Assembly (NCBI GenBank): GCA_903896545.1
Contig: CAITYF010000197.1
Coordinates: 11,665 to 75,664 of the forward strand
Length of the DNA: 64,000 nt
Reading direction: 5' to 3'
Source: an uncultured Myxococcales bacterium
GTDB lineage: Bacteria > Myxococcota_A > UBA9042
A program made the position numbers and the translations under genes. Of this stretch, positions 4,208 to 61,102 are shown one piece after another. Position 1 is the first letter of the stretch, and each line of letters starts with the position of its first letter. The notes beneath the pieces are model-generated. The model was not told the origin of the DNA, ran no database searches, and was given only the letters and a program-made list of their open reading frames with translations.

Positions 4208-4233
4208 GCGCGCACGCACGCGGGGGAACGCGG

Positions 4234-5301: not shown

Positions 5302-5993
5302 TGGGCGTGGTGTACCTGATTCGCCACGGTCAGGCGTCGTTTGGCGCGGCCAATTACGACCAGCTTTCACAAGTTGGCGAGCGACAGGCGCGCGTGCTTG
5401 GACAGACGCTGCGGGCGCGCTCGCCGCAACTGGACGCGGCTTACGCCGGCGCGATGCAGCGGCACCGGCAGACCGCGGAGCCTGCGCTGACGGCATGGAC
5501 GTCCGCGCCGCCATTGCAGGTACACGCGGGCTTCAATGAATTTGACCATCAGGAAGTGCTGGTGCGCTTCAAACCCGCGTACGCGAACAGACTGCTTTTG
5601 GCGGCGGACATGGCGCGCACGCTGCAGCCGCGCAAGGCATTTCAAGCGGCGTTTGACGCGGCGGCGGCGCGTTGGCTGAGTGGCGCGCACGATGACGAGT
5701 ACGCGGAGCCTTGGCCAGTCTTTCGCGAGCGGTGCGTGACCGCGTTGCACGACGTCATCGCCGCGCTGGGGCCGTCACGCACGGCAGCGGTGTTCACATC
5801 GGGTGGAACAATCAGCGCGATTTTGCAGCATCTGCTCGGCCTGCCGGACGATCGCGTCTTTGCGCTCAATCGCACATTGGTCAACTGCGGCGTGACCAAA
5901 CTTGTCTACGGCGCGAACGGCACGTACGTTTCCACCTGGAACGAGCACAGCCATCTGGAAGGCGACGCCGGCGCGCTCCTCACCTACCGCTAA
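5301..5993 (+). CDS. Histidine phosphatase (phosphoglycerate-mutase-like) family protein
   Basis: N-terminal LIRHGQASFG (RHG catalytic motif). ATGA stop/start overlap with the upstream phosphotransferase gene indicates translational coupling. Confidence 0.8.
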   Translation: MGVVYLIRHGQASFGAANYDQLSQVGERQARVLGQTLRARSPQLDAAYAGAMQRHRQTAEPALTAWTSAPPLQVHAGFNEFDHQEVLVRFKPAYANRLLLAADMARTLQPRKAFQAAFDAAAARWLSGAHDDEYAEPWPVFRERCVTALHDVIAALGPSRTAAVFTSGGTISAILQHLLGLPDDRVFALNRTLVNCGVTKLVYGANGTYVSTWNEHSHLEGDAGALLTYR

Positions 5994-6005
5994 CGGAGAC
6001 ACACG

Positions 6006-6752
6006 ATGCGCAAGACGATCCTCATTACGGGTGCCAGTTCCGGCTTGGGCGAAGGCTTGGCCCGCGAATTCGCCGCGCATGGGCGTGACTTGGCGCTCTG
6101 CGCGCGGCGGACGGAACGGCTCGAAGCATTGCGCGCGGAGCTGCTGGCCAAGCATCCCGGCATCCAGGTGTCGGTTCGGGCGCTCGACGTGAACGATCAC
6201 GCGCAAGTATTTGAAGTGTTCGCCGCTTTTGCAGCGGAATTTGGCACGCTCGATCGGATCATCATCAACGCGGGCATCGGGGAAGGGCGGCGCATCGGCA
6301 CGGGGCACTTTGCGACGAACTTGAAGACGGCGGAGACGAACTTCATCGCCGCGTTGGCGCAATGTGAGGCCGCGGTCGAGATCTTCCGGCGGCAGAAGGA
6401 CGGGCATCTGGTGGCGATTTCTTCGATGAGCGCGTTGCGCGGCATGCCCAAGCACCTCACGGCGTACGCGGCGACCAAGGCGGGGCTGGCGAATCTGGCC
6501 GAGGGCATTCGCGCGGAACTCCTCAACACGCCGATCCGCGTCAGTACGATCTTTCCCGGCTACATCTCGACGGAAATCAACGCCGGGGCGAAGGGACTGC
6601 CGTACCTCGTCGACGCCGCGACTGGATGTCGGCAACTCTTTGCGGCGATTGAGCGTGAACCCGTGAAGGCGTACGTGCCTGCCTATCCTTGGGCGATCCT
6701 CGGTCTGTGGATGCGGTTTATGCCGCTGAAGTGGCTGGCAAAAATGACCTAG
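6006..6752 (+). CDS. Short-chain dehydrogenase/reductase (SDR) family oxidoreductase
   Basis: TGASSGLGEGLA Rossmann motif, NAG motif (IINAGIG) and YxxxK (YAATKAG). Third gene of the phosphotransferase / phosphatase / SDR trio. Confidence 0.85.
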   Translation: MRKTILITGASSGLGEGLAREFAAHGRDLALCARRTERLEALRAELLAKHPGIQVSVRALDVNDHAQVFEVFAAFAAEFGTLDRIIINAGIGEGRRIGTGHFATNLKTAETNFIAALAQCEAAVEIFRRQKDGHLVAISSMSALRGMPKHLTAYAATKAGLANLAEGIRAELLNTPIRVSTIFPGYISTEINAGAKGLPYLVDAATGCRQLFAAIEREPVKAYVPAYPWAILGLWMRFMPLKWLAKMT

Positions 6753-6760
6753 GCGACTCC

Positions 6761-24953: not shown

Positions 24954-26480
24954 TTGACCAGAGCGTTGCCGCAACGCACTCTGGGCCTGCAATCGGGACG
25001 CTTCCGCCCCGCGCACGGGATCATGGCCGCTAGCACGCCCTTGCCGTTGCACGATTCACGCGACCGTTGGCCGTTGTGGCTGTTCTGCTTGTTGGCGGCA
25101 CCGCTTCTTGTCAACCGGTTGGGACCAGAATTTCTGGACGCGGACACGCTGCTTTCGTCGCTCATGTCGACGCAAAAGGTCACGCTTTTCTACTGGGGGC
25201 AGGAACGCTTGGCCAACGTGCTGCCGTTTATGCTCGCGCCCGTCACCGATCTGGCGCGGAATCAATGGCTGCAGATGACGGCGAACGCCGCGGCGTACCT
25301 GCTGCTTTTGGAAGCGCTGACGCACGTGGCGTGCCAACTGGACGACGCGCCGCCGCCCCGGCTGTACCGACACGTCCTGTTCGCGCTACTCGTGGCGCTG
25401 CCATTCCTCTTCCTTCGGCCTTTTGCGTTGTACCAATTCACGGTCGCGGCTCAGCCCTATTCGCTGTCCTTTCTGTGTCTGACGTGGGCTGCGCTGGCGT
25501 GGCGTCGCCGCGTCGAACAGCCGCTGTTCTGGGTCGCCTGCGGGCCCGCACTTGTCGTGGCCGTCGGGCTCAATCCCGCCGTCTTGCTTCTTGTCGTCGC
25601 GCTTGTCGCGTGGCAGCACCGGGCGGGAAAAGGCCGCGGTTGGATCGGGTTCTTCGTGCTCACGCTGAGCATTTTTGTTGTCTGGACGTTCTTGTCGGTG
25701 ACCTACCCGCTGCGCTCGCCGGCGTCATTCATGACGTTCGCGCCTCAAGGCGTTCCCGCCGCGCTGCGGGCGTCGGCGGGCGAGATCGCCCACGAAGCGC
25801 TGCGTCTGCGGGTCGTGGCGCTTGGCGGTATCGCGGTGACCGTCGCGTGGCCGCAATTGGGGCTGCAGCAGCGCCGGGCAACCCTTTCTGCAATAGCCTT
25901 AGGCTTTGTCTGGTCGTTGTTTTTCTTGACGAATCTCTGGGTTCAACGCAACTCAGCCGCCTTCCGCTACTTCATGCCGCTCATCTTCGCCCCCGTGGTT
26001 TGCACGGCTCTCGCGCTCGCCCACCTGTGCTTTCAGCGGCGCACCGTGTGGCGCGCGCGAGTCGTCCTTCTCGCCTCCACCCTCGTTTTCGCGGGCTTCT
26101 GCGTACGACCCTGGACGCCGCTCGCCTCGTACCACCTCTTCCGGCCCGCCCGCACACCGTTGGCGACGGCGCAACGCCATCAGATCCGCTACTTCGCGGG
26201 TGACTACTGGACCGTCTGGCCCGTAATTTTCCAACTTCGTCTGCAAGGCCATGACGCTCTCGGCGCGTTTTCGCGCGGGATCGCGATGCAAGCGGAGATC
26301 ATGGCTGCGCTTCACAAGGACCAAATCGTGCAGCCACGGACGCTGGCGCAGTGCATCAGTAAGCCGCTGCCGACCTGTCAGGAGCAGCTCGAGAAGGTGA
26401 CGCGGACGTCCTGGCGTCTGGCCGATGTGCCGCCGGAAGGTGAAAGCATCTTTCTGACCCCGGCCACGCCTCCGCTCTAA
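24954..26480 (+). CDS. Polytopic integral membrane protein (more than 10 predicted TM segments; possibly GT-C-like glycosyltransferase fold)
   Basis: Long hydrophobic stretches throughout. The exact start is uncertain (alternative M at ~25023). The stop codon TAA coincides with the end of the 144-bp repeat. Confidence 0.6.
   Translation: MTRALPQRTLGLQSGRFRPAHGIMAASTPLPLHDSRDRWPLWLFCLLAAPLLVNRLGPEFLDADTLLSSLMSTQKVTLFYWGQERLANVLPFMLAPVTDLARNQWLQMTANAAAYLLLLEALTHVACQLDDAPPPRLYRHVLFALLVALPFLFLRPFALYQFTVAAQPYSLSFLCLTWAALAWRRRVEQPLFWVACGPALVVAVGLNPAVLLLVVALVAWQHRAGKGRGWIGFFVLTLSIFVVWTFLSVTYPLRSPASFMTFAPQGVPAALRASAGEIAHEALRLRVVALGGIAVTVAWPQLGLQQRRATLSAIALGFVWSLFFLTNLWVQRNSAAFRYFMPLIFAPVVCTALALAHLCFQRRTVWRARVVLLASTLVFAGFCVRPWTPLASYHLFRPARTPLATAQRHQIRYFAGDYWTVWPVIFQLRLQGHDALGAFSRGIAMQAEIMAALHKDQIVQPRTLAQCISKPLPTCQEQLEKVTRTSWRLADVPPEGESIFLTPATPPL
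25891..25910. repeat. REP-like palindromic motif copy (CAATAGCCTTAGGCTTTGTC) inside the coding sequence
   Basis: 20-nt match to the motif family, lying within the membrane-protein ORF (it encodes SAIALGFV). Confidence 0.4.
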
Positions 26481-26620
26481 ACATGCCTGCCAACACTGGA
26501 GATCAAATGCTGAACACTTGGTGGGCATGTTTAGGCTGCTAGCAGGGGCGCCAAGCTCGCGTCCGTGCAGGTCGACTCGCGGCGACACAAGATATTGGGC
26601 TCCGAGTCAATGCAGGGATG
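26477..26620 (-). repeat. 144-bp MITE-like repeat, copy 1 (inverted relative to copies 2 and 3)
   Basis: 92-96% identical to 47826-47969 and 60959-61102. It contains a 9-bp stem AAACATGCC/GGCATGTTT, and its terminal CTAAACATGCC supplies the stop codon of the upstream gene. Confidence 0.8.
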
Positions 26621-46577: not shown

Positions 46578-47813
46578 TCAGTCCTGCGGCACCAGCTTGA
46601 ACGACGCGAGCGGTCCCGGCTGGAGGGCAAACACGCGTTTCTCCGCACTTGCTTCGCTTGTGGGCCCCAAGCGGCGAAACGCGCAAGTCAGCTTTTGCAC
46701 CGGCGGGTCGCCTTCACAATCCCAGACGCCCTCCTGTTCCAGCGGCTGGAGCGGGAATTCTACGGCGGTCACCGCGTCTCGCGTCACTTGCCAGAGCGTG
46801 TACCCGGCGTGCGTCCACGCGCGACCTAGCCGCGACTGTTCAGGAGTCGCTGGCAGCGCGACGCGTTGCAGCAGCAGCGTCCGCAGTGGCTCGTCGGTTT
46901 TGGTCTGCGGCAGCGCCAGGTCCCACGCGCCTTCGCGCCAGAGCGGGATCCGTCCCGTCGCGTCAGCCGCTCCATGGAGCAGCGCTGCCCGCGGCGCGCC
47001 ATCCTCACCCAACAGCAGCGTGTAGCGTTGCGCATCGCGGTGGTCCGTCGCCGTGGAAGCCGCGTCTTCCGCCGCGTTCAGGTCTTCAAACCGTGGCAAC
47101 GCGTTCTCCGACTGCCAGGATGCGGTCGACACAGCCTGCAGTTGCGCGAGCCAGCCGCCCGCCGGCAGCGCCACGAGCCAGGTGAAGCGCTTGTCCAGCA
47201 GCGTCGGATGCAGCACAAAATCGGGCGTCGCCTGCGGCTCGGGTTGGGACGTCAGCTGCGTCGGCAACGACCACTGCACGCCAAAAGCCCGCTGGACTTG
47301 GCCCTGTGCCGTCGCTTGGACCAGCAATCGCAGCTGGCGTCGCAGCGTCGGCTTGGCGTCGACGCATGCCAGATCGACGCCGAGCCACGGCGGCGTCGCA
47401 TCGTCGCCGGGGTGCAGCACTTCCACGTGGAGCCGCGGCGGCGCGTCCCGCGGACATGTGAGCGCATCCGTCGGCAAGGGCGCGGCCGCAATGGGCTGGA
47501 ACTGCGGCTTGGTATCTGCGTGCAGGCGCACCACGTTCAGCGACGCGAGGACCAGCGGGTGGTGACTGAGCTTCAAGTCTGGCTTCTGCAGGTCGCGCAG
47601 CAGCATCGCCTGCCACGTCACGAGCCAAGTCGGCGGTGGCTCGTGCTGGGTCAGGCCGGGAATCGTCTCCGCAGCCGCGCCAGGTGCCTCCGCGCCCGTC
47701 AGGAAGGCCAACAGCTTGGCCTGGAGCACGGTTGTCTTGGAAAATGCCGGCGTCTCTTCCGCCGCCGCGTGGCGCGCACAGAGCAGCACCGCCAGCGCGA
47801 CGAAACGCTTCAT
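46578..47813 (-). CDS. Hypothetical secreted protein
   Basis: Signal peptide MKRFVALAVLLCARHAAAEE. No recognisable family. The upstream ORF extension lies within the 144-bp repeat and was excluded. Confidence 0.5.
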   Translation of the reverse strand: MKRFVALAVLLCARHAAAEETPAFSKTTVLQAKLLAFLTGAEAPGAAAETIPGLTQHEPPPTWLVTWQAMLLRDLQKPDLKLSHHPLVLASLNVVRLHADTKPQFQPIAAAPLPTDALTCPRDAPPRLHVEVLHPGDDATPPWLGVDLACVDAKPTLRRQLRLLVQATAQGQVQRAFGVQWSLPTQLTSQPEPQATPDFVLHPTLLDKRFTWLVALPAGGWLAQLQAVSTASWQSENALPRFEDLNAAEDAASTATDHRDAQRYTLLLGEDGAPRAALLHGAADATGRIPLWREGAWDLALPQTKTDEPLRTLLLQRVALPATPEQSRLGRAWTHAGYTLWQVTRDAVTAVEFPLQPLEQEGVWDCEGDPPVQKLTCAFRRLGPTSEASAEKRVFALQPGPLASFKLVPQD

Positions 47814-47825
47814 GGGCAAGCTACA

Positions 47826-47969
47826 CATCCCTGCATTGACTCGGAGCCAAATATCTTGTGTCGCCGCGAGTCGGCCCGCAGGGACGCGAGCTTGGCGACC
47901 CACCTAGCAGCCCAAACATGCCCACCCAGCGTTCAGCATTTGATCTCCAGTCCTGGCAGGCATGTTTAG
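47826..47969 (+). repeat. 144-bp MITE-like repeat, copy 2
   Basis: CATCCCTGCATTGACTCGGAGCC...GGCAGGCATGTTTAG. Its terminal TTTAG supplies the TAA stop (minus strand) of the gene at 47966-48970. Confidence 0.8.
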
Positions 47970-48970
47970 CGGGTCGCGTGCGCGCGGGCCACACGTCCCA
48001 GCAAATCATCGATGTCGTGCTGCAACGTCGCATCCGCGGACGTTCGCACAGCAGCCAGGCGTGCCGGCAGGTCGGGCAGATCCGCCAGCTGCAGCGACTG
48101 CACCACGCGCTCGCGCGACTCGCCCTGCGTTTTGGCCAGAAGCGGCAGCAGGGCGTCCGTCACGCGCTGACGGACGCGCAGGCCGTCCTCCGCGCGCACG
48201 CGACCCAGCGCCTGCCACGACCAACTCGACGCAATCGCGCCCATGGCCTGAACGATCGTCCGCTGTGTCGCGTCATCTTTGGCTGTCGCCAGCGCAGACA
48301 CCAACAACTGCGCGGCATCCGTGCGCTTGCACACCCCCAGACCGGCGATCGCCGCCGTGTACAGCGGGTCGTCCGCGCGGAGGTGCTGCTGCAGCGCCTG
48401 CAGTTCCAGCGCGCCCCCCAGACGCCCCAAAGCTTCCGCCGTCGCACGCGCCACGGTCATTTGCCGACCCAGCGGCGTGAGCAGCTCCTGACGACCGCGC
48501 GCCTGTTGCCACAGCGTGTGCAGAACGCCGCGCGCCCGGGTGTCGCGCAACGTGCCCACAGCCTCGAGGAGACCGACCAACAGCGCGCGCTCTTCCTTCG
48601 CGCGGTTCACCGCGTCCGTCGACAAACCTTGCGGCGACCAATCCAACGCCAGCGCGCTCAACATCGGCAGCAGGCCGGCAGTACCGAGGGCGCGCAATTC
48701 GCGGCTGCAGTTCGGCTCTGGCGTACGCGCCGCCATCCAGCCGTCGGGACGACATCCCTTGGCCACCGCCACGATGTCGTACGCCGCCGGACGCGCCAGA
48801 CGATCCGCCATCACCGCATTTTGCAGCGCCGTGCGGTCCGCAGGTCCCATCTGCGCCGCCTGAATCGCCAACCCTGCGGGCTCGGCTGCCAGCGCCGGTG
48901 CTGCCGCGCTCAGCGAGCCAACCGTCAGCGCCAGGAAAATCATCTTCTGCTTCATCATCTTGTGCCTCAT
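47966..48970 (-). CDS. Hypothetical secreted alpha-helical (HEAT/ARM-like) repeat protein
   Basis: Signal peptide MIFLALTVGSLSAAAPALA, followed by Leu/Ala-rich helical repeats. Confidence 0.5.
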   Translation of the reverse strand: MRHKMMKQKMIFLALTVGSLSAAAPALAAEPAGLAIQAAQMGPADRTALQNAVMADRLARPAAYDIVAVAKGCRPDGWMAARTPEPNCSRELRALGTAGLLPMLSALALDWSPQGLSTDAVNRAKEERALLVGLLEAVGTLRDTRARGVLHTLWQQARGRQELLTPLGRQMTVARATAEALGRLGGALELQALQQHLRADDPLYTAAIAGLGVCKRTDAAQLLVSALATAKDDATQRTIVQAMGAIASSWSWQALGRVRAEDGLRVRQRVTDALLPLLAKTQGESRERVVQSLQLADLPDLPARLAAVRTSADATLQHDIDDLLGRVARAHATR

Positions 48971-49134: not shown

Positions 49135-51345
49135 TTAGTGTTTCACGAGCCACCACTGCCAGGTCGGCTGCGGCGGGCCTTCCGGGTTCGTCCCGCAGTG
49201 CACTTCGCCCTCGTTGATGTGGTAACTCTCGAAGTCGTCGATGAAAAACACCTTCATGCCCTGGCCGTCCGCGCCCAGCGCGTTCACCGGCGTACCCAAG
49301 CGATCCTTCAGGTCCTGGGCAAAGACGTCGACGCCGTTCACCTTTGGACCAAACGGGTTCGGAATTTCCATCGTGTTGCCCACGAGCAGCATGTTCGCCG
49401 TGCCGGGCTGCCACGCGATCTTGCCACCGCCGACTTCCTCGGTCAGGAACGGCATCTCAATGATCTCGGCGTCCGTCAGACCGGTCGCGTCGACAACCGT
49501 CTTGCGGATGCCATCCGCCGCCGCTTGCGCCTCTTGCGACCACTGCAGCAGATCGGAATTGTTCAGCGTCTCCGTCACCGATTTTGCCGCAGGCACCATG
49601 GTGGAATCGGTTTCGTTCTTGTACGTGTTCTTGCCGTCAAAGAGCAGCGCGGCACCGTGGCCGTCGTCCGCCAGCTTCTGCAGCATCTGCTTGGCGAGGT
49701 TGTTCGACGCGACCAGCAGCTTCCAGCCGCGGTCCGTCTTCGCCGGCGAATAGCTGAGCACTTCATCGACGTGACCGACAAGCAGCCAACTCGTATCCAC
49801 TTCCAGCGCCGGCGACTGCGGTCCCTGCGCGTTGTAGAACTGCGACGTCTCGTCCAGGATCCCCGAACCGTGGATGATCCGTCCGACCGGGAACTTGTCC
49901 TGGTTGTTGGAGTAGGCCGGCAGCAAGTCGTGATTGCCGTGGCTGTCGTAGCTCGAACCCGAGTTGGGCGACAGGTAGATGGCGATCGCGGCTTTGTCCT
50001 TGCCCAGATAGCTGGAACGCAGCCACGCGATGGGCAGCAACTTCGGCGAGCACGCGTTGTAACGGCCCCACGGGCGGGCGTTGGCGACGCGCATGCCGTG
50101 GATCTTGGTCTTGCCGTCGGCGTCCTTGCCCTGCGGAATGGAAGTCCACGCGGTCTGGTAGTAATCCTGCGTCCACGCGTCGTTCCATTTGCCGCCCGAC
50201 GAACCGTTGGCATACGTCGTGAACTTCACGTTCGCGCCGTTCGCGCCCAGTGCCGCCTTCAGGTCGGGCACAAACGGCGTGAAGTAGTTCGCCGCGCGCA
50301 CTTCATCAAACGGCGTCAGGTTGCCGTTGAGAATCCACGGCGCGACGTGCAGGAGCACAGACTTCTTGCCATCGACGAGTTCTTTGGTCGGAATCGGCTT
50401 GGCCTTGGCGTCGGTGCCCTGACCGATCCAGTAGGTGATGCGCACGTTGCCGTTCCACGAGTCGTCGCGGCGGAAGTCGCGCCCTTCGATCGCCAGCTTC
50501 ACGCCCTTGCGAAGGTCGTCGGCCGTCAGAATGCCCGCCTTGGCGTTGGTGTCCGCGCAGTCATCCGGCGCGCTGTCGGGGCAAAATGCGAACGTCGGCA
50601 CGCAGTCGTTGTTCACGCCGGCGACGATTTCCCAGCCGTTTGCGCCATTCTTCCACAGGCGCACCTTCTCCGGGTTGTCGATCGAGAGCACGCCCACGTA
50701 GCCGTCAGGCGCGTCCGGCCAAGCGGCGATTGTGATCGGCGCCAGATCGAGTTCGTCGTCTGCGCCGTTGATGCTCGTGTCCAGGACGTCTTCGATCTTG
50801 TCGCCGTCGTCGTCGTCCAAATTCGCGAGGTAGGAAGCGCCAAATTCGCTCGTCCATTCATTGCTGTGCGCCTGATCGTCGGCGTTCTTCAGGTCGGCTA
50901 CGCCGTCGCGGTTCGCGTCCACGACAAGGTCAACGATCGGCGTGGCCAAGGTGCCGTCAGTGCCGTCCGCGCCACCGTCGCCCGACGACGCGTCAGACCC
51001 CGATAGGCACTTGAGGTGCGCGTTGTACACGCAGGATGTCACCGCGCCAACTTGCATCGTGGTTGCCTGATCCGTCAGGCCCTGCACGCATTTGCTGAGG
51101 CACGTCGAGTCAGTCTGGTCGCAGGAGCCCACGCAATTGAGCCAAGTCTGGCAGCCGCCGACGCACTTCCCAATCTCGCTGGAACACGCGGTCTGCTCGC
51201 ACGCGCCGGCAAACTTGCTGTCGGCCGAGATTGTGCCGCCTGGCGTCGACGTGGTTGTGGTTCCGCAGCCCGCAAGCAAGCAAAGCGTTGCCAGTGGCAC
51301 GCCCGAGGCTGACAGGACACGCTTGAAGAACAAGTTATTTTGCAT
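49135..51345 (-). CDS. Protein-arginine deiminase (eukaryote-type PAD) homologue lipoprotein with a Cys-rich N-terminal module
   Basis: C-terminal FFIDDFESYHINEGEVHCGTNPEG matches the PAD active-site Cys block (GEVHCGTN). Acidic Ca-site-like stretches (DLVVDANRDGVADL, LDDDDGDKIEDV). Lipobox LLAGCGTT. Confidence 0.65.
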   Translation of the reverse strand: MQNNLFFKRVLSASGVPLATLCLLAGCGTTTTSTPGGTISADSKFAGACEQTACSSEIGKCVGGCQTWLNCVGSCDQTDSTCLSKCVQGLTDQATTMQVGAVTSCVYNAHLKCLSGSDASSGDGGADGTDGTLATPIVDLVVDANRDGVADLKNADDQAHSNEWTSEFGASYLANLDDDDGDKIEDVLDTSINGADDELDLAPITIAAWPDAPDGYVGVLSIDNPEKVRLWKNGANGWEIVAGVNNDCVPTFAFCPDSAPDDCADTNAKAGILTADDLRKGVKLAIEGRDFRRDDSWNGNVRITYWIGQGTDAKAKPIPTKELVDGKKSVLLHVAPWILNGNLTPFDEVRAANYFTPFVPDLKAALGANGANVKFTTYANGSSGGKWNDAWTQDYYQTAWTSIPQGKDADGKTKIHGMRVANARPWGRYNACSPKLLPIAWLRSSYLGKDKAAIAIYLSPNSGSSYDSHGNHDLLPAYSNNQDKFPVGRIIHGSGILDETSQFYNAQGPQSPALEVDTSWLLVGHVDEVLSYSPAKTDRGWKLLVASNNLAKQMLQKLADDGHGAALLFDGKNTYKNETDSTMVPAAKSVTETLNNSDLLQWSQEAQAAADGIRKTVVDATGLTDAEIIEMPFLTEEVGGGKIAWQPGTANMLLVGNTMEIPNPFGPKVNGVDVFAQDLKDRLGTPVNALGADGQGMKVFFIDDFESYHINEGEVHCGTNPEGPPQPTWQWWLVKH

Positions 51346-51496
51346 GGCAATCTCGCGGGCAAATGCGTAAACGAAGGCACAGCGCACCGCAGCAATCGCG
51401 GTGCGGCATGCACCCTAGCTGTTTTGTGACGACCGTGCAACGACGCAACGCGTCACCCGCAGAAGTTCGTGAGGGTGACGCGCGGCATCAGTGTGA

Positions 51497-54400
51497 CTAC
51501 TTGATCGTGCCGCGGATGTACGTGTAACCGGCGACGTTGGCGATTTCCTGAATGTCCAGACCCAGCGTCGTGCCCGCGGGAATGGCGGGCGACAGCGTCG
51601 ACAAGTCGATCGACGGCAGTGGAATCGCGCCCAGACCGCTGGAGATGCCGCCGACCAGATTCGGCACAAGGCCGGTGATGAGCGACACGAAGATGTCCTT
51701 GAACGGCAGCGCTTCCGAGTTGATCTTCGTCACTTCCAGCTTCAAGGCGATGCTCTTCGGGTCGAGGTTCAAAGAAATCGCCTTGGAGCCCGGATTCTTG
51801 GGATCCGCGACCGCTTCAATCTTCACCTTGGCCGTCACCAGCGCGTATGCGTACATGTCGATCGGCGTGCCGCTGAAGCTCAGCATCGCGTGGATGCCCA
51901 AGTCGCCGATCTGCAGCGTCAGCCATTCGCCGTCCGCGCACGTGTTCAGGATCGGCGGCAGCATGAAATCGGTCTCAACCGACAGATCTTTCACGCCATA
52001 CGTCGACATGTCGATATTGCCCAGCACCGACGAGTCCAGCGCCAGCTGCAACAGGCCGCCGTTCCAGATCGCGTGCAGCAGCTGGTTGACAAAGTCATCC
52101 GCCAAGCCCACTTCCAGACCGTACTTCTCCGTCGGGTTGAACACGACCGGCTTGGCGTTCTCCGCGAGGCAGCCCGCGCGACCGATCGAACCCAACACGT
52201 CGTGCGGCACCTTCTTCTCGGCCGTCATGGACGCCATCAAACCGAACACGATGCCCTGCTTCTTCTGGAACGCGAGCGTGCCCACGTCCGACGTCAGCTT
52301 GAGGTTCGCCGGCGCGCCCTTGCCGATGAACGGCCCGAGCGGGATCGTCGTGTTGATCGCCAGCATGTTGAAGATCGTGCCGAGCTGACCGCCGATCAGC
52401 TGGTCCAATTGCGGCGCGAGCACGGTTGTCAGGAGGTTGGTCAGCGGCGCGAGGATCAGCTTCTCCAACTGGGCGAGGAAGCCCGTCACGTTGATGCCCA
52501 CGTTGTTCAGCTGTTGCACCAGCGGGCCGCTCGGCAGAATCGTCAGGTTCTGCAGCTGAATCGTGGTGTTCTTCGCCGAGCTGACCAGCTTGCCGGTCGC
52601 TGGGTCTTTGGACAGGTAGATGTCCAGGCCAATGTCGATCTCATCCGCGGCGATGGTCGTGACGGTCTTGAACGGCACGAAGCCGAGCAGGTTGATGTCC
52701 AGGTTCAAGTCCGCCGACAGGCCGTAGATTTTCGCCGAGACGTAGATGCCGCCGTCCAACACTTCCATGTCGATAAGCGGGTAGCCGCCGTTCTTCAGCG
52801 GATCGCCGAGCTTCACGTTGCCAATCGACGGCGTGACGGTCGTGCCCAGCACATTGATGACGCCCAAGCTCACGCCGCCGCCGAGTAGGCTGTTCAGGTC
52901 GAGTTTGCCCAACACAATCTCGAGCACCGACACGATGTCCTTCGGGGTCGTGTGGTTGTGCGTGCCGTTGTCCAGGATGTTCTGCGAGAGCCAAATGCCG
53001 ATCGCGTCGTTGATTTCACTGTCCTTGGGCGTGTTGAAGTCCGAGAGGAACCACTGGGTCGAGTAGTAGTACGTCTGCACGCCCTGCGAGATGTTGTCCC
53101 ACTGGTCGTGCGCTTCCCACTCGATCGGGTTCATGCCCCACACGCTCGGAATATCGAAGGTGAACGAGCCGTCGGCCGCGATCGTGACTTCCTGACCGCC
53201 GATGGTGAACGACTTGACCGCGCTGGTGACGTCGATGACGGTGCCCTTCACGTGCACGATCGGGTCGCCGTTGAGCGTTGCGCCGCGCGCGGGCTCGGTG
53301 ATGAGGACGAGCGGACCGACGGAATCGCACGTCAGCGTCGTTTCAGCCGACAAACTCGGGTAGTCAACGCTCGTGCCCACGAAGTGGTAGTGGCCGTCGG
53401 TGTTGAACGAGTAGCTCTTGCCGCCCGCGTTGACCGTCACGCCTTCGGGCGGATCGACCGCGCAGGGCTGCTGCAACGGCATTTCCGGCACGTCGTTGCC
53501 GAACTTGTCCTTACCGAGGCCGAACATCTTGATCGTGTCGTCGATCTTGTAGAACGGCATATTCGGCTTGGGCCACAGCGTCATCGAGACGGGCTTGCCG
53601 GGCGTTACCGTCACCGTGCCGGGCGTGGCGTTTTCCTTCGTGACGTTCGCCATCATGCACTGGATGTCGTACTTGCCCGAAACCGTCGAGGTCAGGCCGC
53701 CGCTGGTGGACGTCAGCGCCTTCGGATACATCAAGGTCGCGCCGGAAGCGTCGACCGTGTTGCCCCACTGGTCGACTGCGGCGCAGGTCACCTGCGTGCT
53801 GCCCGCGCCGGCTTCAAACGTGGCCGGGGTCACCGTCGCCGTCGTCTTGTAGGCAGCGCCAGCCGTAATGACGAGCGGCGCGCCGTCGCTCACCGCGTCG
53901 GGCGACGATTCAAGGGCGCACTTCACGGTCACCGTGCCGGCGAGCCAGCCTGTGACGGAGAGGTCGGTGATCGTGCCTGCGTTTGGCGGGTCGAGCGCGA
54001 GCGACCAAGCGATGCCGTCCTTGCCGACGTCATTGCCGTACGCGTCCTTGCCGGAGCAAGCCGCGCTGGCGACGTCACCGGCGTGAATGGTCTGCGGGTT
54101 GATCGTCGTCGTGAGCGTTGCGGCGGGGCCCGCGCTGACGGACAGGATCGCCGACTTGTCCTTGGGGTTCGCCGCGCGTTCGGGCAGCGTGCACTGCACC
54201 TGGTACGAGCCGACCAACGTTCCCGTCAGGTTCGCCTTGTCGATCGTCACACCTTTGGTCGGCGTCACCGTGTAGGTCGGCTGCGGAATCTTCACTTCCC
54301 CCGGCTGACCGATGCACTGAACCGTCACGACCGTACCCGCGATCACGTGGCCTTCCGACAGTTGCGTGTCGACCGACTCGATGGAAGCGAGCTGACCCGG

Positions 54401-54550
54401 CTGCAGACCCACTGTGAGGCCGAGGTCCTCCGGAGTCGCGTTGGCCTGCGAATCGCCGCAGCCCGTCGTCAGCACGCCGAGCGTTGCGAGGGTCAAAGTG
54501 GCCAGAGCGAAGGGGCGAGTAGCAGCGAACAAGCGTGAGGCGAGGTACAT
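51497..54550 (-). CDS. Large (~1000 aa) surface lipoprotein with N-terminal Ig-like/BIG repeats and a large C-terminal domain of unknown function
   Basis: Lipobox LTTGCGDS. Repeated ~90-aa Thr/Val-rich beta segments (TVTVKC..., TQVTCAAVD...). No catalytic motif recognised. Confidence 0.6.
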   Translation of the reverse strand: MYLASRLFAATRPFALATLTLATLGVLTTGCGDSQANATPEDLGLTVGLQPGQLASIESVDTQLSEGHVIAGTVVTVQCIGQPGEVKIPQPTYTVTPTKGVTIDKANLTGTLVGSYQVQCTLPERAANPKDKSAILSVSAGPAATLTTTINPQTIHAGDVASAACSGKDAYGNDVGKDGIAWSLALDPPNAGTITDLSVTGWLAGTVTVKCALESSPDAVSDGAPLVITAGAAYKTTATVTPATFEAGAGSTQVTCAAVDQWGNTVDASGATLMYPKALTSTSGGLTSTVSGKYDIQCMMANVTKENATPGTVTVTPGKPVSMTLWPKPNMPFYKIDDTIKMFGLGKDKFGNDVPEMPLQQPCAVDPPEGVTVNAGGKSYSFNTDGHYHFVGTSVDYPSLSAETTLTCDSVGPLVLITEPARGATLNGDPIVHVKGTVIDVTSAVKSFTIGGQEVTIAADGSFTFDIPSVWGMNPIEWEAHDQWDNISQGVQTYYYSTQWFLSDFNTPKDSEINDAIGIWLSQNILDNGTHNHTTPKDIVSVLEIVLGKLDLNSLLGGGVSLGVINVLGTTVTPSIGNVKLGDPLKNGGYPLIDMEVLDGGIYVSAKIYGLSADLNLDINLLGFVPFKTVTTIAADEIDIGLDIYLSKDPATGKLVSSAKNTTIQLQNLTILPSGPLVQQLNNVGINVTGFLAQLEKLILAPLTNLLTTVLAPQLDQLIGGQLGTIFNMLAINTTIPLGPFIGKGAPANLKLTSDVGTLAFQKKQGIVFGLMASMTAEKKVPHDVLGSIGRAGCLAENAKPVVFNPTEKYGLEVGLADDFVNQLLHAIWNGGLLQLALDSSVLGNIDMSTYGVKDLSVETDFMLPPILNTCADGEWLTLQIGDLGIHAMLSFSGTPIDMYAYALVTAKVKIEAVADPKNPGSKAISLNLDPKSIALKLEVTKINSEALPFKDIFVSLITGLVPNLVGGISSGLGAIPLPSIDLSTLSPAIPAGTTLGLDIQEIANVAGYTYIRGTIK

Positions 54551-54808
54551 GTTGCACTCCTTGCGCGGTGGCGCGAGCCCGGCTCGTTCAGCCTTCGGCC
54601 CATGGAAACCCACGTAGAACCGAGAAATTCCACGGTCAGCCGACCGGGCGCGCGAATCTTACCAGATTCGTCAAGCCAGTGCGAGTTTGATGTTCGTGTC
54701 ACGTTCTTGTGGCGCAAAATGCCCGTGCCGCTTGCGTTTATGGATTGGCGACCGGCACTTCTGTCGCTACACTCCGTGCTCCCGTCCCGGTGGACGCCGC
54801 GAAACGCC

Positions 54809-57613
54809 ATGCACGTCATCGAAACCCGTGTCTATCAAGGTCCTAATCTTTACGCGCACTTCCCGGTGATGCGGTGGACGGTCCGGCTTGGCCCGTTGGA
54901 GGACAAGCCGTCTGCCGAGATTCCGGGGTTCGTCGATGCCCTTTTGGAACACGTGCCGACGCTCTGGGAGCACACGTGCAGTCCCGGTGTGCGCGGCGGT
55001 TTTGTGCAGCGTTTGAATCAGGAAGGCGGCACGTGGATGGGGCACGTGCTCGAACACGTCGCGATCGAACTGCAGAACTTGGCCGGCGCGCGCGTGAGCT
55101 TTGGCAAGACGCGTGGCTCCGGGCACCACGGTGAGTACCACGTCGTTTTTGAGTATGAAGAAGCGCGTGTGGCGCAGGCAGCGGCGGAGCTCGCCATGAA
55201 GCTGCTGCACCATCTCGTGCCCGCGGAACTGGTTCCCGACGCTGAGCGCGATCCCGATTTTCACTTCCAGACAGAGTTGGACGATCTCATTCGTCAGGCA
55301 CAGCGCCGCGCTCTGGGGCCATCCACGGGCAGCCTGGTGCGCGCCGCGGAAGCGCGTGGCATCCCGTGGATTCGCTTGAACGACCACTCGCTGGTGCAGT
55401 TTGGCCACGGCAAGTTGCAAAAGCGCATCCAAGCGACGGTGACGAGCGAAACCCGGCACATCGCTGTGGAGATCGCCAGCGACAAGCAGGAAACCAACAA
55501 GATCCTCGCCGACCTGGGACTCCCGGTGCCGCGTCAGGAGATGGTCTATTCGGTAGAGGAAGCGGTCAAAGCGGCGCGTTCGATTCGCTATCCGGTGGTG
55601 GTCAAGCCGTTGAACGCGAACCACGGCCGCGGCGTGTCGATCAACCTGACTTCACCCGAACAGGTGGCGACGGCGTTTGAGAAGGCGCAAGAACACAGCC
55701 GCGCCGTGTTGGTCGAGACATTTGTCGCAGGCTTTGATCATAGAATGCTGGTGATCAACGGAGAATTGGTCGCAGTGGCCAAGCGGGTTCCCGGCCACGT
55801 GGTCGGCGACGGCTCGCACACGATCGCGGAGCTGGTCGACATCGTGAACAGCGATCCGCGGCGCGGCATCGGCCACGAAAAAGTGCTGACCCGGCTCGCG
55901 TTTGACCACCAAGCCGAGAGGCTCATGGAGCAGGCGGGCGTGACGCGCGAGTCGGTCTTGCCTGCGGGTGAAATCCTGTATTTGCGGTCGACCGGTAACC
56001 TGTCGACGGGCGGCACGGCGATCGATCTGACCGATCAAGTGCACCCGGACAACGCGGAAATGGCGGTTCGCGTGGCCGGCGCAATCGGTCTGGACGTGAT
56101 CGGTGTAGACTTTTTGACTCAGGACATGACGCGCAGCTATCGCGAAGTCGGCGGCGCGATCTGTGAGGTCAACGCTGCGCCTGGCTTCCGCATGCACGTG
56201 GCGCCGAGCGAAGGCAAACCGCGCGACGTGGCCGGCAAAGTGATCGACATGCTGTTCCCGCCTGGGACGCCGTCGCGCATTCCGATCGCCGCGATTACCG
56301 GCACGAACGGCAAGACGACGACGAGCCGCATGCTCGCGCACATCTTCAAGTTGCGCAGTGAAATCGTGGGTTTGACGACGACGGACGGCGTGTACATCGA
56401 CGGCCAGCGCACCGTGGAAGGCGACATGACGGGGCCGATGAGCGCGCAGATGGTGCTGCGTGATCCGAAGGTCACGGTCGCCGTGCTGGAAACGGCGCGC
56501 GGCGGCATGTTGCGGTCCGGCTTGGGCTACCGCTGGCCGGACGTGGCGTGCTGTCTGAACGTGAGCGCGGACCATCTGGGACTCGGCGGCGTCGACACGC
56601 TCGATCAGTTGGCCGCGGTGAAGCGGATTCCGATCGAAGTGGCGCGTGAAGCCGTTGTGCTGAACGCGGACGATGAACTCTGCCTGGCCATGGCGGATCA
56701 CAGCCAAGCGAAGCACGTCTGGTACGTCACGACGAATCCGAACCACGCGCTGGTCCGCGAGCACATTCGCGCGGGCGGCAAAGCGGTGGCGCTGGAAGCG
56801 GGCGTAAACGGCCAGATGATTGCGCTTTACGATCGCGGCCAGCACCTGCCGCTGCTGTGGACGCATTTGATTCCGGCGACGCTGGAAGGCAAGGCGATCC
56901 ACAACGTGCAGAACGCGATGTTCGCCGCCGCGATGGCCTACGCGATGCACGTGAAGTTGGATGACATTCGCCACGGCTTGCGGACGTTTGACTCGACGTT
57001 CTTCCAGTCGCCCGGACGCATGAACGTCTACGACGCGCTCGGCTTCAAGGTGCTGCTGGATTACGGTCACAATCCGGCGGCGGTCAAGGCGATGTGCACG
57101 CTGGTCGACAATCTGGTGGCGGGCGGCGTGCTCGCAACGGGCGGCAAGCGCGTGTGTGTTCTGGCGGCACCCGGTGACCGACGCGATGAAGATATTTTGG
57201 AAGTCGCTCGCATCGCGGCGCATTCGTTTGACGAGATCATCTTGCGTCGCGACGACAACCCGCGCGGGCGAGGTGACCGTGAAGTGCCCGAGCTCCTGCA
57301 AAAAGGCCTCATCGCCAGCGGTTTCCCGGCGGACAAGCTGACCATCATCACGCACGAAGTGGACGCGCTGCAGGACGCGCTGGACCGCTGCAAGCCCGGC
57401 GACTTGCTGTTGGTGTTCTGTGACAAGGTGACGCGTTCGTGGAAGCAAATCATCTACCACCATCAGCAGCAGGGTGGGCGACCGCCGGTGGAGGACGAGA
57501 CGCCTCAGGCCGTGGCCCAGCAGCCGCAGGAAGATGAAACGCCGCTGAGTACGTCCGGGCTTGTGCGCGATGCGCGTGGCGTGCGGCTGGCGCGTCCTGA
57601 AGAGGCGGATTGA
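54809..57613 (+). CDS. cphA: Cyanophycin synthetase (N domain + ATP-grasp G domain + Mur-ligase-like M domain)
   Basis: N-domain MHVIETRVYQGPNLYAHFPVMRWTVRLG...; ATP-grasp region (VVVKPLNANHGRGV, RMLVINGELVAVAKRVPGHVVGDGSHTI); Mur-ligase P-loop ITGTNGKTTTSRM. 934 aa. Confidence 0.85.
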   Translation: MHVIETRVYQGPNLYAHFPVMRWTVRLGPLEDKPSAEIPGFVDALLEHVPTLWEHTCSPGVRGGFVQRLNQEGGTWMGHVLEHVAIELQNLAGARVSFGKTRGSGHHGEYHVVFEYEEARVAQAAAELAMKLLHHLVPAELVPDAERDPDFHFQTELDDLIRQAQRRALGPSTGSLVRAAEARGIPWIRLNDHSLVQFGHGKLQKRIQATVTSETRHIAVEIASDKQETNKILADLGLPVPRQEMVYSVEEAVKAARSIRYPVVVKPLNANHGRGVSINLTSPEQVATAFEKAQEHSRAVLVETFVAGFDHRMLVINGELVAVAKRVPGHVVGDGSHTIAELVDIVNSDPRRGIGHEKVLTRLAFDHQAERLMEQAGVTRESVLPAGEILYLRSTGNLSTGGTAIDLTDQVHPDNAEMAVRVAGAIGLDVIGVDFLTQDMTRSYREVGGAICEVNAAPGFRMHVAPSEGKPRDVAGKVIDMLFPPGTPSRIPIAAITGTNGKTTTSRMLAHIFKLRSEIVGLTTTDGVYIDGQRTVEGDMTGPMSAQMVLRDPKVTVAVLETARGGMLRSGLGYRWPDVACCLNVSADHLGLGGVDTLDQLAAVKRIPIEVAREAVVLNADDELCLAMADHSQAKHVWYVTTNPNHALVREHIRAGGKAVALEAGVNGQMIALYDRGQHLPLLWTHLIPATLEGKAIHNVQNAMFAAAMAYAMHVKLDDIRHGLRTFDSTFFQSPGRMNVYDALGFKVLLDYGHNPAAVKAMCTLVDNLVAGGVLATGGKRVCVLAAPGDRRDEDILEVARIAAHSFDEIILRRDDNPRGRGDREVPELLQKGLIASGFPADKLTIITHEVDALQDALDRCKPGDLLLVFCDKVTRSWKQIIYHHQQQGGRPPVEDETPQAVAQQPQEDETPLSTSGLVRDARGVRLARPEEAD

Positions 57614-59256
57614 TGAAGGCGAGCAATGCACGGCGCTTGACTGGACCTAGCTGGTGGCTGGATGCGGCGGGCGCGGCGGTGGAAGTTGCTTTTGCCGCCG
57701 ATGACGACCCGGACTGGCTCTTCGCTGATTGGTCTCGGCAGATCTTCGATATTGCTAAGCTTTTGGTTTGGCCGTCGCCGCAATTTGGTCAAACCCGCGG
57801 ATCGGGTGTCGCAACCTGGGCGTTCACCGCACCGCTCGATCAGCTTGGTACGGCAGCGGAATTGGCGGAACAAGCATGCAGTGAGGCCGCGTGGGCTTTG
57901 GTCGCCCCTGCCGAGGCGAATCCGCGCGCGATGGCCTGGATCGCGGCGGCGGAAGCCCACAATCTGCCGTGGCTTTGGGATGAAGACGCGCTGACTTTGG
58001 GCCTCGGCGCACACAGCCAGACTTGGCCGCTCGCCGAAGTGAATGAAACGCTGCCCGATTTGCACGGCCTCGCGACGATTCCGCACGTGCTGATTACGGG
58101 AACCAACGGCAAGACGACAACAGCGCGCATGATCGCGCGAATCCTGCGCCATCACGGGCTTTTTGCGGGCAACACGTCGACCGATGGGTTGATGCTCGAC
58201 GGTCAATTGGTCACACCAGGCGATTGGACGGGACCGGGCGGTGCGCGCCAAGTGCTGCGGAATACCCGCGTGCAAGCGGCGGCGCTCGAGACGGCGCGCG
58301 GTGGGCTTCTGCGGCGCGGATTGGCGTCGCACTGGGCTGACGCTGCGGTTGTGACCAACGTCAGCGATGACCATTTGGACCCGCAGGTTCCGTCTGAAGC
58401 AGCGATGGCCGACGCGAAGCTCGCGATTCGGCGGGGAATTCGTGCCGGAGGCCTGCTGATTCTGAACGCCGATTGCGCGCCCTTGGTCGCCGCCGCGCAA
58501 CGCCTGCGGTTGCCCGATGGCGCCTACGCGCTGGCGTGGTTTGGCGCATCGCGGGCGAGCGCGACCGCGCTATCGGGGGCGCTCCACGCGTGGTCGGAAG
58601 ACTCCGCACTCGTCTTGCGCGACGCGAACGGCGACCACCGCTTCGCGGAACTGGCCGCGGTGCCTTCTACTTTTGACGGACATGCGCCGCACAACGTCGC
58701 CAATGCCTTGGCGTCTGCTCTGGCAGCTCGCGCGATGGCCGTTCCGCTGCCGACCATCGCTGGCGGGCTGCGCGCATTTGGCTCGACGATCGCCGACAAT
58801 CCCGGTCGCGCCAATGTGATGCACCTGAACGGCGCGACGATCCTGATCGATTTTGCCCATAATCCCGATGGTGTGCGCCAAGTTGCCGCGCTGGTCGATG
58901 CGTGGCCATCGGTGTCGCGAACGCTGCTCGTGGGGCAGGCGGGCGATCGCACGGACGACCTGATGCACGCGTTGGTCGTCGCGTCGTTGGCGTTTCGTCC
59001 GGACCGCGTTGTGCTGAAAGACACGGATCACTACCTGCGCGGTCGGCAAAAGCACGAGATCCCCGAAGTGCTGCTGCGGTTTTACCTGCGCGAAGGGGTT
59101 CCCGCGGACGCGATGTCCATCACGCACGATGAGGCGTCGGGCATCGACGCGGCGCTGCAGGACGCGCTGCCCGGACACTTGCTGATTCTGCTGATTCACG
59201 ACGATTTTCCCGCGGCGGTCGCGCAACTGCGCGCGGCGGGGGCGGTGGAACCGTGA
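57610..59256 (+). CDS. Cyanophycin-synthetase-like stand-alone Mur-ligase (M-domain) protein lacking the ATP-grasp domain (cphA'-type)
   Basis: ITGTNGKTTTARM P-loop, and RGGLLRRGLASHWADAAVVTNVSDDHL paralogous to the cphA ARGGMLRSGLGYRWPDVACCLNVSADHL. No ATP-grasp motifs. The start overlaps the cphA stop. Confidence 0.7.
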   Translation: MMKASNARRLTGPSWWLDAAGAAVEVAFAADDDPDWLFADWSRQIFDIAKLLVWPSPQFGQTRGSGVATWAFTAPLDQLGTAAELAEQACSEAAWALVAPAEANPRAMAWIAAAEAHNLPWLWDEDALTLGLGAHSQTWPLAEVNETLPDLHGLATIPHVLITGTNGKTTTARMIARILRHHGLFAGNTSTDGLMLDGQLVTPGDWTGPGGARQVLRNTRVQAAALETARGGLLRRGLASHWADAAVVTNVSDDHLDPQVPSEAAMADAKLAIRRGIRAGGLLILNADCAPLVAAAQRLRLPDGAYALAWFGASRASATALSGALHAWSEDSALVLRDANGDHRFAELAAVPSTFDGHAPHNVANALASALAARAMAVPLPTIAGGLRAFGSTIADNPGRANVMHLNGATILIDFAHNPDGVRQVAALVDAWPSVSRTLLVGQAGDRTDDLMHALVVASLAFRPDRVVLKDTDHYLRGRQKHEIPEVLLRFYLREGVPADAMSITHDEASGIDAALQDALPGHLLILLIHDDFPAAVAQLRAAGAVEP

Positions 59257-60111: not shown

Positions 60112-60957
60112 ATGACTACACCCCGCAAAATCGTCGTAACCGGCGCTTCGACAGGCTTTGGGCGCTGCATCGCAGAAGCCGCGCTCGCCCAGGGGTGGTC
60201 CGTGCTGGGCACCGTTCGCAAGGACACCGACGCCGCCGACTTGCGCGCCAAGGGCATTGCCGTCGCGCAGTTTGACCTCGCGGTGCCCGAATCGATCGGC
60301 CCTGGCTGCGCGCAAATTCTCGCGTGGTGCGAGGGCAATCTGGACGCGCTGGTCAACAACGCCGGCTCGACTTGGCCCGGTCCCATCGAGCTCGTGACGA
60401 TGGCTGATCTGCGTGTGCAGTTTGAAGTGAACACTTTTGGCCACATCGACGTGACGCAGCGCCTGCTTCCGGCGATCCGCGCAGGGCATGGCCATGTGCT
60501 CTTCATCTCGTCGGACTCGACCACGTTGACGCCGCCGATCGTCGGCACCTACGCGGCGTCCAAGCGCGCCATCGAGGCGCTCGCCGAGTCGCTGGCTCAG
60601 GAAACGGCGGGGCAGGGCATTCACGTGTCGATCGTCGCGCCCGGACCGTATCAGACCGCGATTTGGGGGACCTCGATTCCCCGCGGCGAGGCGTACCTGG
60701 AAACCGCCGATCCGCGGCTGCAGCTTTACCGCACGCTGGCCGAACAGTTGGGCAGAGCGTCCACCAACCGCCCGCTGGGCGATCCGATGGACCTCGCGCA
60801 GGTCGTGCTGAAGCAGTTGAACGACCCGAATCCACCGCTGCGCACGGTGGCGCCGTTTCAGTCGCGGCTGGTCAGCTGGGTGCGTGCGCTCATCGGCCCG
60901 CGGCGCTTCCACAAGCTGCTGCGTTTTGTCATCGCCAAGCAAGGTGCAGCGAGCTAG
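60112..60957 (+). CDS. SDR family oxidoreductase
   Basis: AAGGAG RBS 6 nt upstream. VVTGASTGFGRCIA, NNAG, YAASKRAIE (YxxxK). Confidence 0.8.
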   Translation: MTTPRKIVVTGASTGFGRCIAEAALAQGWSVLGTVRKDTDAADLRAKGIAVAQFDLAVPESIGPGCAQILAWCEGNLDALVNNAGSTWPGPIELVTMADLRVQFEVNTFGHIDVTQRLLPAIRAGHGHVLFISSDSTTLTPPIVGTYAASKRAIEALAESLAQETAGQGIHVSIVAPGPYQTAIWGTSIPRGEAYLETADPRLQLYRTLAEQLGRASTNRPLGDPMDLAQVVLKQLNDPNPPLRTVAPFQSRLVSWVRALIGPRRFHKLLRFVIAKQGAAS

Positions 60958-60958
60958 A

Positions 60959-61102
60959 CATCCCTGCGTTGACTCGGAGCCAAATATCTTGTGTCGCCGC
61001 GAGTCGGCCCGCAGGGACGCGAGCTTGGCGACCCAGCTAGCAGCCTAAACATGCCCACCCGGCGTCCAGCATTTGATCTCCAGTCTTGGCAGGCATGTTT
61101 AG
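60959..61102 (+). repeat. 144-bp MITE-like repeat, copy 3
   Basis: Starts 2 nt after the SDR TAG stop. Its terminal TTTAG provides the TAA stop (minus strand) of 61099-61572. Confidence 0.8.

Follow-up and report, generated by a model that had tools for sequence, protein, structure and literature searches.

The stretch of DNA analysed here (the window; 64,000 nucleotides of contig CAITYF010000197.1, assembly GCA_903896545.1, from an uncultured Myxococcales bacterium) has a G+C content of approximately 63% and carries on its minus strand a gene for a member of the protein-arginine deiminase (PAD) family bearing a lipoprotein signal, with a gene for a HEAT-repeat protein, referred to below as the partner, directly downstream. 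The features of the two genes, with the evidence for each, are as follows:

49135-51345, minus strand: PAD lipoprotein gene, 736 amino acids, stop codon included (open reading frame; Pfam PF03068, E=8.6e-61; identical public protein P0001)
51265-51345, minus strand: signal peptide and lipobox, amino acids 1-27, LLAG ahead of Cys27 (read from the sequence; Cys27 column conserved)
51004-51210, minus strand: Cys-rich four-helix module, amino acids 46-114, with 10 Cys and three Cx3C motifs (AlphaFold2 helices; no Pfam match)
50365-50943, minus strand: PAD_M-like middle domain, amino acids ~135-327, with the Ca3/4/5 acidic cluster and Cys248/Cys263 (profile alignment to human PAD4 from residue ~107)
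49150-50364, minus strand: PAD_C catalytic domain, amino acids 328-732 (Pfam stretch 328-732; catalytic residues; Foldseek match to PAD4)
49195-49197, minus strand: codon of the catalytic Cys717, the equivalent of PAD4 Cys645 (alignment map)
47966-48970, minus strand: gene of the exported HEAT-repeat partner, 334 amino acids from the first ATG, 330 in the public annotation (HEAT_2 matches, family profile, adjacency, AlphaFold2 model)
48725-48727, minus strand: codon of Arg82 of the partner, which alone is invariant across the two alignments of partner sequences (alignments)

The full open reading frame of the PAD gene spans 49135-51387 on the minus strand. The ATG at 51345 was taken as the start because close homologues begin at the equivalent position: P0001 is likewise 736 amino acids long, P0002 starts with MHNK and P0003 with MQKN. 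These starts agree with the gene limits given in a preliminary description of this DNA, which had been made from the sequence alone. A Pfam scan of the protein returned PF03068 alone at E≤1, with a score of 206.5 bits against a cut-off of 25 and an alignment covering positions 5-394 of the 395-position profile. No agmatine-deiminase, PPAD (PF04371) or arginine-deiminase/amidinotransferase family was matched at that threshold, and no NCBIfam model matched the protein. All matches in a sequence search of the PDB were to human PAD1-6 (PAD3, E=1e-38). An alignment of 81 PAD relatives, A1, formed the basis of a family profile, of the structure prediction and of all residue counts given below; its profile matched human PAD4 at E=2e-97 over PAD4 residues ~107-661, which comprise PAD_M and PAD_C but not PAD_N. 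The AlphaFold2 model obtained from A1 had a mean predicted local distance difference test (pLDDT) score of 87 and a predicted template modelling (TM) score of 0.81, with disorder at residues 1-45 and 116-129 only. In a Foldseek comparison of the model with the PDB the top 50 matches were all human PAD1-4, the best being to PAD4 (E=1.7e-45, ~24% identity), and TM-scores against PAD4, PAD2, PAD3 and PAD1 were 0.63 when normalised to the query and 0.73-0.75 when normalised to the target. One member of the 90%-identity cluster of the protein is annotated by JGI as a protein-arginine deiminase.

The middle domain required the family profile for its recognition. PF08527 (PAD_M) gave no Pfam match at E≤1 in the window protein on its own, and a precomputed match exists for 15 of 111 PAD relatives; membership holds through the A1 profile alignment to PAD4 together with the conservation of all nine Ca3/4/5 ligands. 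PAD_N is absent, and between the lipobox and PAD_M lie just a linker and the helical Cys-rich module. The window protein belongs to the PAD family and is of the two-domain (PAD_M + PAD_C) bacterial type; being without PAD_N and without a Ca2 site, it stands outside the three-domain animal/cyanobacterial PADI clade. The preliminary description had presented it as a eukaryote-type PAD homologue distinct from the agmatine and arginine deiminases, to be checked with profiles of the three PAD domains and by structure prediction. Family and distinction were both borne out, and the predicted structure agrees with them. Of the domains, PAD_C was found directly, PAD_M through the family profile only and PAD_N not at all, and the term eukaryote-type is an overstatement for a two-domain bacterial protein that has no PAD_N and no Ca2 switch.

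Residues were assigned to their PAD4 counterparts by means of a map of PAD4 107-661 that was reconstructed from the profile alignment and added to A1, using as calcium ligands those which we take, from structural work on PAD4, to be the ligands of that enzyme. D394, H525, D527 and C717 correspond to PAD4 Asp350, His471, Asp473 and Cys645 and are invariant in 81 of 81 relatives. The equivalents of W347 and V469 (PAD4 numbering) are also invariant in all 81, and that of R372 is present in 77. A dead enzyme is unlikely since the catalytic tetrad is invariant. The C-terminus FFIDDFESYHINEGEVHCGTNPEG, in which the preliminary description had recognised the GEVHCGTN block with its catalytic Cys, was found in the PAD reading frame and holds Cys717, and the catalytic Asp and His residues, whose loss on alignment it had named as a ground for doubt, have been retained. 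It had also remarked on acidic clusters of calcium-binding type: the cluster NLDDDDGDKIEDVLD..DDELD aligns with the Ca3/4/5 ligands of PAD4. N175, D177, D179, D186, D189, D197, D200 and E287, the counterparts of PAD4 N153, D155, D157, D165, D168, D176, D179 and E252, are all conserved in A1, and the position of PAD4 D388 (Ca4), D450 in the window protein, is Asp in 74 of 81 relatives against Gly in actinobacterial and fungal enzymes (PMC8826395), although this difference depends upon the alignment. Deiminase activity and calcium dependence would be predicted from these residues.

The N-terminus of the protein agrees with the lipoprotein pattern [LVI][ASTVI][GAS]C, and both the lipobox and the Cys-rich module that follows it had been read correctly in the preliminary description. 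Of the 81 relatives, 79 share the lipobox Cys. The residue at position +2 is G, S, D, V or T among the relatives and never Lys, the residue that acts at +2 as the inner-membrane retention signal of lipoproteins in M. xanthus (PMC3222651). This makes the outer membrane or a later destination likely, to the extent that the rule carries across genera. Beyond the catalytic Cys, the pair Cys248/Cys263 in an insertion of PAD_M is conserved in 71-72 of 81 relatives, which suggests a disulfide, and the nine closest relatives have a further pair, Cys255/Cys432. Such conserved pairs would fit an oxidising compartment, with the disulfides themselves predicted from the sequence. Given the conservation of the lipobox Cys and of the Cys pair, the PAD clade is probably exported and lipid-anchored.

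The Cys-rich module has a narrower distribution. Its predicted helices extend over residues 46-56, 64-73, 80-92 and 96-114 with pLDDT values of ~56-82, and no Pfam family was found for it. Among the PAD relatives it occurs only in the window protein/P0001 and in P0003/L002, and a search of 1.84 billion representative proteins with the module yielded 5 weak matches only. Three of these (P0113, P0114 and P0115) are lipoproteins of 299-336 amino acids, without a Pfam family, that carry the module behind a lipobox of their own at 37-41% identity over ~70 amino acids; the module therefore recurs in other lipoproteins, all of them from metagenomic sources. No convincing second copy was found within the 64-kb window. 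The module is a lineage-specific add-on and not a feature of the family. In another relative, P0110 (768 amino acids), Somatomedin-B domains (PF01033, E=6e-16) precede PAD_M and PAD_C, and the N-terminal slot of these proteins takes varied Cys-rich add-ons. P0110 is an odd location for this animal-type domain.

The second gene, which was not mentioned in the preliminary description, encodes a protein with a Sec-type signal peptide. HEAT_2 was matched by 37 of 45 members of its family, the family profile matched alphaRep/HEAT structures at E=8.5e-41, and the AlphaFold2 model is an all-helical solenoid (pLDDT 86) with structural matches that include alphaRep and importin-alpha. The partner forms a discrete family: a profile search gave ~64 matches at E≤1e-57, all nameless or labelled hypothetical protein, followed by a gap to generic HEAT proteins at ~1e-6. 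Arg82 lies in the motif [F/K]-R-[N/G]-P-x-P and within loop 81-83, the sole internal stretch of the model with a pLDDT below 50, and in the subclade of the window it is flanked by Cys73 and Cys88.

A scan of GTDB species genomes yielded at least 566 PAD relatives, and most of the locus counts given here rest on the best 79 loci. By tblastn, the partner was found directly downstream of PAD on the same strand in 55 of the 79; by profile hidden Markov model it adjoined PAD on the same strand in 77 of 83 PAD loci, 72 times downstream and 5 times upstream, the commonest spacing being an overlap of 4 nucleotides with the PAD stop codon. Loci without an adjacent partner are mostly explained by contig ends, a fragmented gene or tandem PAD genes, and a genuine absence seems likely for L066, L069 and perhaps L059 only. 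An apparent tandem of two PAD genes occurs in L039 (PAD matches at 3099-7091). In the reverse direction, four of four distant partner homologues on long contigs immediately precede a PAD gene; the pair therefore survives a change of gene order. In two metagenome-assembled genomes (MAGs) with two PAD loci (L016/L049 and L038/L052), each locus has its own partner. Several MAGs in all, L059/L063 among them, hold two PAD paralogues of ~31-45% identity to the query, most with a partner of their own. The pairwise identities of PAD and partner also correlate (r=0.86), a value raised by common ancestry. In a distant subclade (L080, L081 and L083, positions ~1-6800; L082 is similar) the pair is inverted, with partner and then PAD overlapping or at most 7 nucleotides apart, at the end of a same-strand run of genes for a ~480-amino-acid protein, a PMT_2 glycosyltransferase, a Ser/Thr kinase and a ~115-125-amino-acid protein; succinate dehydrogenase genes adjoin this run.

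Nearly all of the best 79 loci are labelled myxobacterial, with a few broader or evidently mis-binned labels, and many of the closest come from lake metagenome assemblies. Carriers among them include Labilithrix luteola, Polyangium fumosum, Pyxidicoccus and Archangium. Identity to the window PAD is 67-83% in the closest MAGs, 40-80% within Polyangia-labelled loci and ~31-33% in those labelled Myxococcaceae. The loci from an 'Enterobacteriaceae' MAG (L006, which has the partner too) and a 'Thermoanaerobaculia' MAG (L073) are probably binning or labelling errors. Cummings et al. (2021) listed 295 bacterial species with PF03068, including 69 'Proteobacteria', and defined the two-domain PADI type in fungi, actinobacteria and proteobacteria (PMC8826395); Harris et al. 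(2020) reported 837 bacterial PADs, present in 0.1-4% of genomes per phylum and in genome contexts described as 'highly diverse' (bioRxiv 10.1101/2020.07.16.207027). The view that such enzymes are uncommon in bacteria, taken in the preliminary description, is consistent with these overall frequencies; the window protein, however, has at least 566 relatives, the best 79 being nearly all from loci labelled myxobacterial. A bacterial PAD enzyme is already known from Streptomyces, where a PF03068 protein forms the citrulline of the lasso peptide citrulassin and the substrate gene is distal (bioRxiv 10.1101/2020.07.16.207027). Neither export, nor a lipoprotein form, nor a partner is mentioned in either study (PMC8826395; bioRxiv 10.1101/2020.07.16.207027), and in the searchable literature the variant that combines a probably exported lipoprotein form, a near-constant HEAT partner and altered Ca1/Ca2 sites appears to be undescribed.

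The window PAD resembles the two-domain PADI type (PMC8826395) in possessing PAD_M and PAD_C without PAD_N, in keeping the catalytic and substrate residues and a Ca3/Ca5-type cluster, and in having no Ca2 switch. It differs in the lipoprotein export signal and HEAT partner of the myxobacterial clade, which are unmentioned in that work, and in the replacement of E353 by Gln and the His pair of a DSHGNHD motif. The only actinobacterial relative retrieved, P0111 of Kribbella, is 28% identical to it. With the citrulassin enzyme of Streptomyces, which deiminates peptide arginine, it shares PF03068 and the absence of a linked substrate gene; compared with the 'highly diverse' contexts of bacterial PADs (bioRxiv 10.1101/2020.07.16.207027), however, the myxobacterial clade has a near-constant neighbour. 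The fold of the middle and catalytic domains, the catalytic tetrad and the Ca3-5 ligands are those of human PAD4, PAD2, PAD3 and PAD1. Whereas the human enzymes are cytosolic or nuclear, the window PAD is predicted to be exported and lipid-anchored; it is without PAD_N and Ca2, and it adds probable disulfides, the N-terminal Cys-rich module and a dedicated partner gene. The PPAD of P. gingivalis is a secreted, surface-attached and calcium-independent enzyme exported by the type IX secretion system. It is thus, as is predicted for the window PAD, a bacterial peptidyl-arginine deiminase that works outside the cytoplasm, but it belongs to the agmatine-deiminase-like family PF04371, for which the window PAD gave no match.

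Further genes and elements around the pair are as follows:

51497-54550, minus strand: upstream gene, 1017-amino-acid putative lipoprotein with an Ig-like Glucodextran_B domain and a large domain of no known family (PF09136, E=4.5e-9; same position in 10-11 loci)
46578-47810, minus strand: downstream gene, ~410-amino-acid protein with a signal-peptide-like N-terminus and of no known family (11 loci)
54602-57613, plus strand: cyanophycin synthetase cphA, with Cyanophycin_syn N domain, ATP-grasp and Mur ligase M/C (TIGR02068, 1149 bits against a cut-off of 850)
57610-59256, plus strand: truncated cphA-like gene of 548 amino acids overlapping cphA by 4 nucleotides (Mur-ligase half of CphA only; 298 bits, below the cut-off)
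47819-47969, plus strand; 60952-61102, plus strand; 26477-26620, minus strand: three copies of a ~150-nucleotide intergenic repeat, 92-95% identical

Judged by eye, four successive minus-strand genes have an export-type N-terminus: those of the 1017-amino-acid protein, PAD, the partner and the ~410-amino-acid protein. The 1017-amino-acid protein had no match in the PDB or NCBIfam and the ~410-amino-acid protein none in Pfam, NCBIfam or the PDB; both are subclade-specific neighbours confined to ~10-11 loci. The cphA gene diverges from this run, starting ~50 nucleotides from the 1017-amino-acid gene, and occurs within 10 kb of PAD in 4 of 79 loci only, the closest ones (L001, L003, L004 and L005), three of which also share gyrB. 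This adjacency was accordingly considered plain local synteny, and loci at 42-51% PAD identity keep the 1017-amino-acid gene and lack cphA. The two genes at 54602-59256 look like a cphA/cphA'-type pair in a myxobacterium. A Ser/Thr kinase/FGE-type cluster, the only other recurrent neighbour (16 loci), was dropped as a candidate link because it is generic and found in mixed positions and on both strands. PADLOC defence models matched none of the PAD, partner, 1017-amino-acid and ~410-amino-acid proteins, no Rfam match was obtained in the window at the gathering threshold, and a scan for promoters and terminators was uninformative, with no promoter-like site and with terminator-like sites less frequent than in shuffled sequences. 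The ~150-nucleotide repeat has terminal inverted repeats, CTAAACATGCC...GGCATGTTTAG, and its 5' part contains TTGAC; one of the copies directly adjoins the partner's stop codon. It had no Rfam match, was not found in the 79 related loci, and could be an element resembling a miniature inverted-repeat transposable element or repetitive extragenic palindrome, or a small RNA gene.

Taken together, these data point to an envelope peptidyl-arginine deiminase of PAD_M + PAD_C architecture in a Polyangia-type myxobacterium that works with a dedicated HEAT-repeat partner, a reading we regard as moderately probable. We infer the exact location, the substrates and the role of the partner along the following lines. 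PAD would be made with a type-II signal peptide and would therefore be lipid-anchored outside the cytoplasm, most likely at the outer membrane or on the periplasmic side. In that position, its Cys/His/Asp/Asp site would act on envelope or extracellular proteins or peptides and turn their peptidyl-arginine into peptidyl-citrulline, while the Ca3-5 cluster would stabilise the fold in a calcium-rich compartment. The co-translated periplasmic partner would present substrates to PAD or regulate it, possibly via the invariant loop residue Arg82. In a more elaborate version, PAD and the partner would constitute an unrecognised envelope citrullination module in which Arg82 docks in the active site as a substrate or pseudosubstrate lock, PAD being turned on once the partner leaves or is citrullinated and then neutralising the arginine charge on the cell's own envelope proteins, prey proteins or cationic antimicrobial peptides; this version is offered tentatively and we think it unlikely.

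A number of observations weigh against an envelope deiminase with a dedicated partner. No paper on myxobacterial PADs, and with it no account of their activity, localisation or substrate, was found in the searchable literature, and in an oxidising compartment the catalytic thiol would need to remain reduced. No Ca2 switch site remains, with E351 replaced by Tyr or Phe, D369 aligned to a gap and N373 variable, and Ca1 is altered: Q393 (Q349) is kept, E353 is Gln in 77 of 81 relatives and E411 is Asp in 74 of 81. The DSHGNHD motif, which is family-wide (amino acids 467-473, ~49927-49947 on the minus strand; DSFGNLE in PAD4), places His469 and His472 (76-77 of 81) at the positions of PAD4 F407 and L410, whose backbone binds Ca1. 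The Ca1 region of the family may be a different metal site, and because Ca2 is lost and Ca1 altered, metal dependence may differ from that of the human PADs. The equivalent of PAD4 Arg374, a residue that binds the substrate backbone, is ambiguous between two alignments, being either R424 or R428. As to the partner, none was detectable at the cultured Myxococcaceae loci L066 and L069, the gap between the two genes in the window is ~164 nucleotides without any overlap, and the correlation between PAD and partner pairwise identities (r=0.86) is confounded and inflated by shared phylogeny.

Other explanations were considered for the same observations. PAD could be an antagonistic or predatory effector, transferred as a lipoprotein by outer-membrane vesicles or exchange, with the partner as a pseudosubstrate inhibitor whose Arg82 loop occupies the active site and protects the producer in the manner of a toxin-immunity or latency pair. 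Myxobacteria do possess lipoprotein toxins delivered by outer-membrane exchange, namely SitA, and the adjacency of the genes, often with the 4-nucleotide overlap, the single invariant Arg in a low-confidence loop with two Cys around it in the subclade, and the retention of a partner by each PAD paralogue of one MAG (L016/L049, L038/L052) would all suit such a pair. It is nevertheless unlikely: PAD identity tracks taxonomy, a pattern resembling vertical descent more than the behaviour of polymorphic toxins, Pfam detected neither a delivery nor an escort domain, the partner sometimes comes first in the gene order, and PADLOC returned no match. Rather less likely still is that PAD tailors a peptide natural product or signal that is exported, in the manner of citrulassin, with the substrate gene at another place in the genome. 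Experiments have established no other role for a bacterial PF03068 protein, and the citrulassin substrate gene is distal as well (bioRxiv 10.1101/2020.07.16.207027), but neither the window nor the related loci showed a recognisable biosynthetic cluster close to PAD, the conserved neighbouring gene encodes a HEAT scaffold and not a precursor peptide, and a lipid anchor would be unusual for a tailoring enzyme.

Scavenging of nitrogen, in which PAD would deiminate extracellular free arginine or small guanidino compounds, would agree with the predicted extracytoplasmic location and with the insecure conservation of the Arg374 equivalent. Against it stand the membership of PF03068, with no family of free-arginine or agmatine deiminases matched at E≤1, and the retention of the W347, R372 and V469 equivalents; a dedicated protein-binding partner would also be hard to account for, and we consider this role improbable. 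An action on cyanophycin (multi-arginyl-poly-aspartate) made by the divergent synthetase would explain the bona fide cphA so close to the upstream gene of the PAD run, with the truncated cphA-like gene behind it. That functional link was rejected, as only the four closest loci show the adjacency and as there is a mismatch of compartments, the polymer being cytoplasmic and PAD predicted to be exported. The idea is largely refuted and has very little likelihood left, and the adjacent synthetase, whose position is not conserved, lends no support to the suggestion in the preliminary description that polymer-bound arginine might be a substrate.

As regards the physiological role of bacterial PADs, tailoring of citrulassin is the sole case tested. 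A probably exported clade with the full catalytic machinery and a constant partner offers a concrete two-protein system for study, in which bacterial extracellular citrullination and its targets could be sought; among its carriers are cultured strains such as Labilithrix luteola DSM 27648 and Polyangium fumosum DSM 14668. An extracytoplasmic setting would provide a simple rationale for calcium-dependent PAD folds. Were the envelope citrullination module to prove correct, a corollary would be that PADs originated outside the cytoplasm, as enzymes of a calcium-rich compartment, and such an origin would explain the puzzlingly high calcium requirement of the animal enzymes. Similarly, a partner acting as a natural pseudosubstrate inhibitor would represent a new, protein-based form of PAD control. 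To a specialist a bacterial PAD is in itself no surprise; the probably exported PAD-partner pair, by contrast, provides a testable handle on bacterial citrullination.

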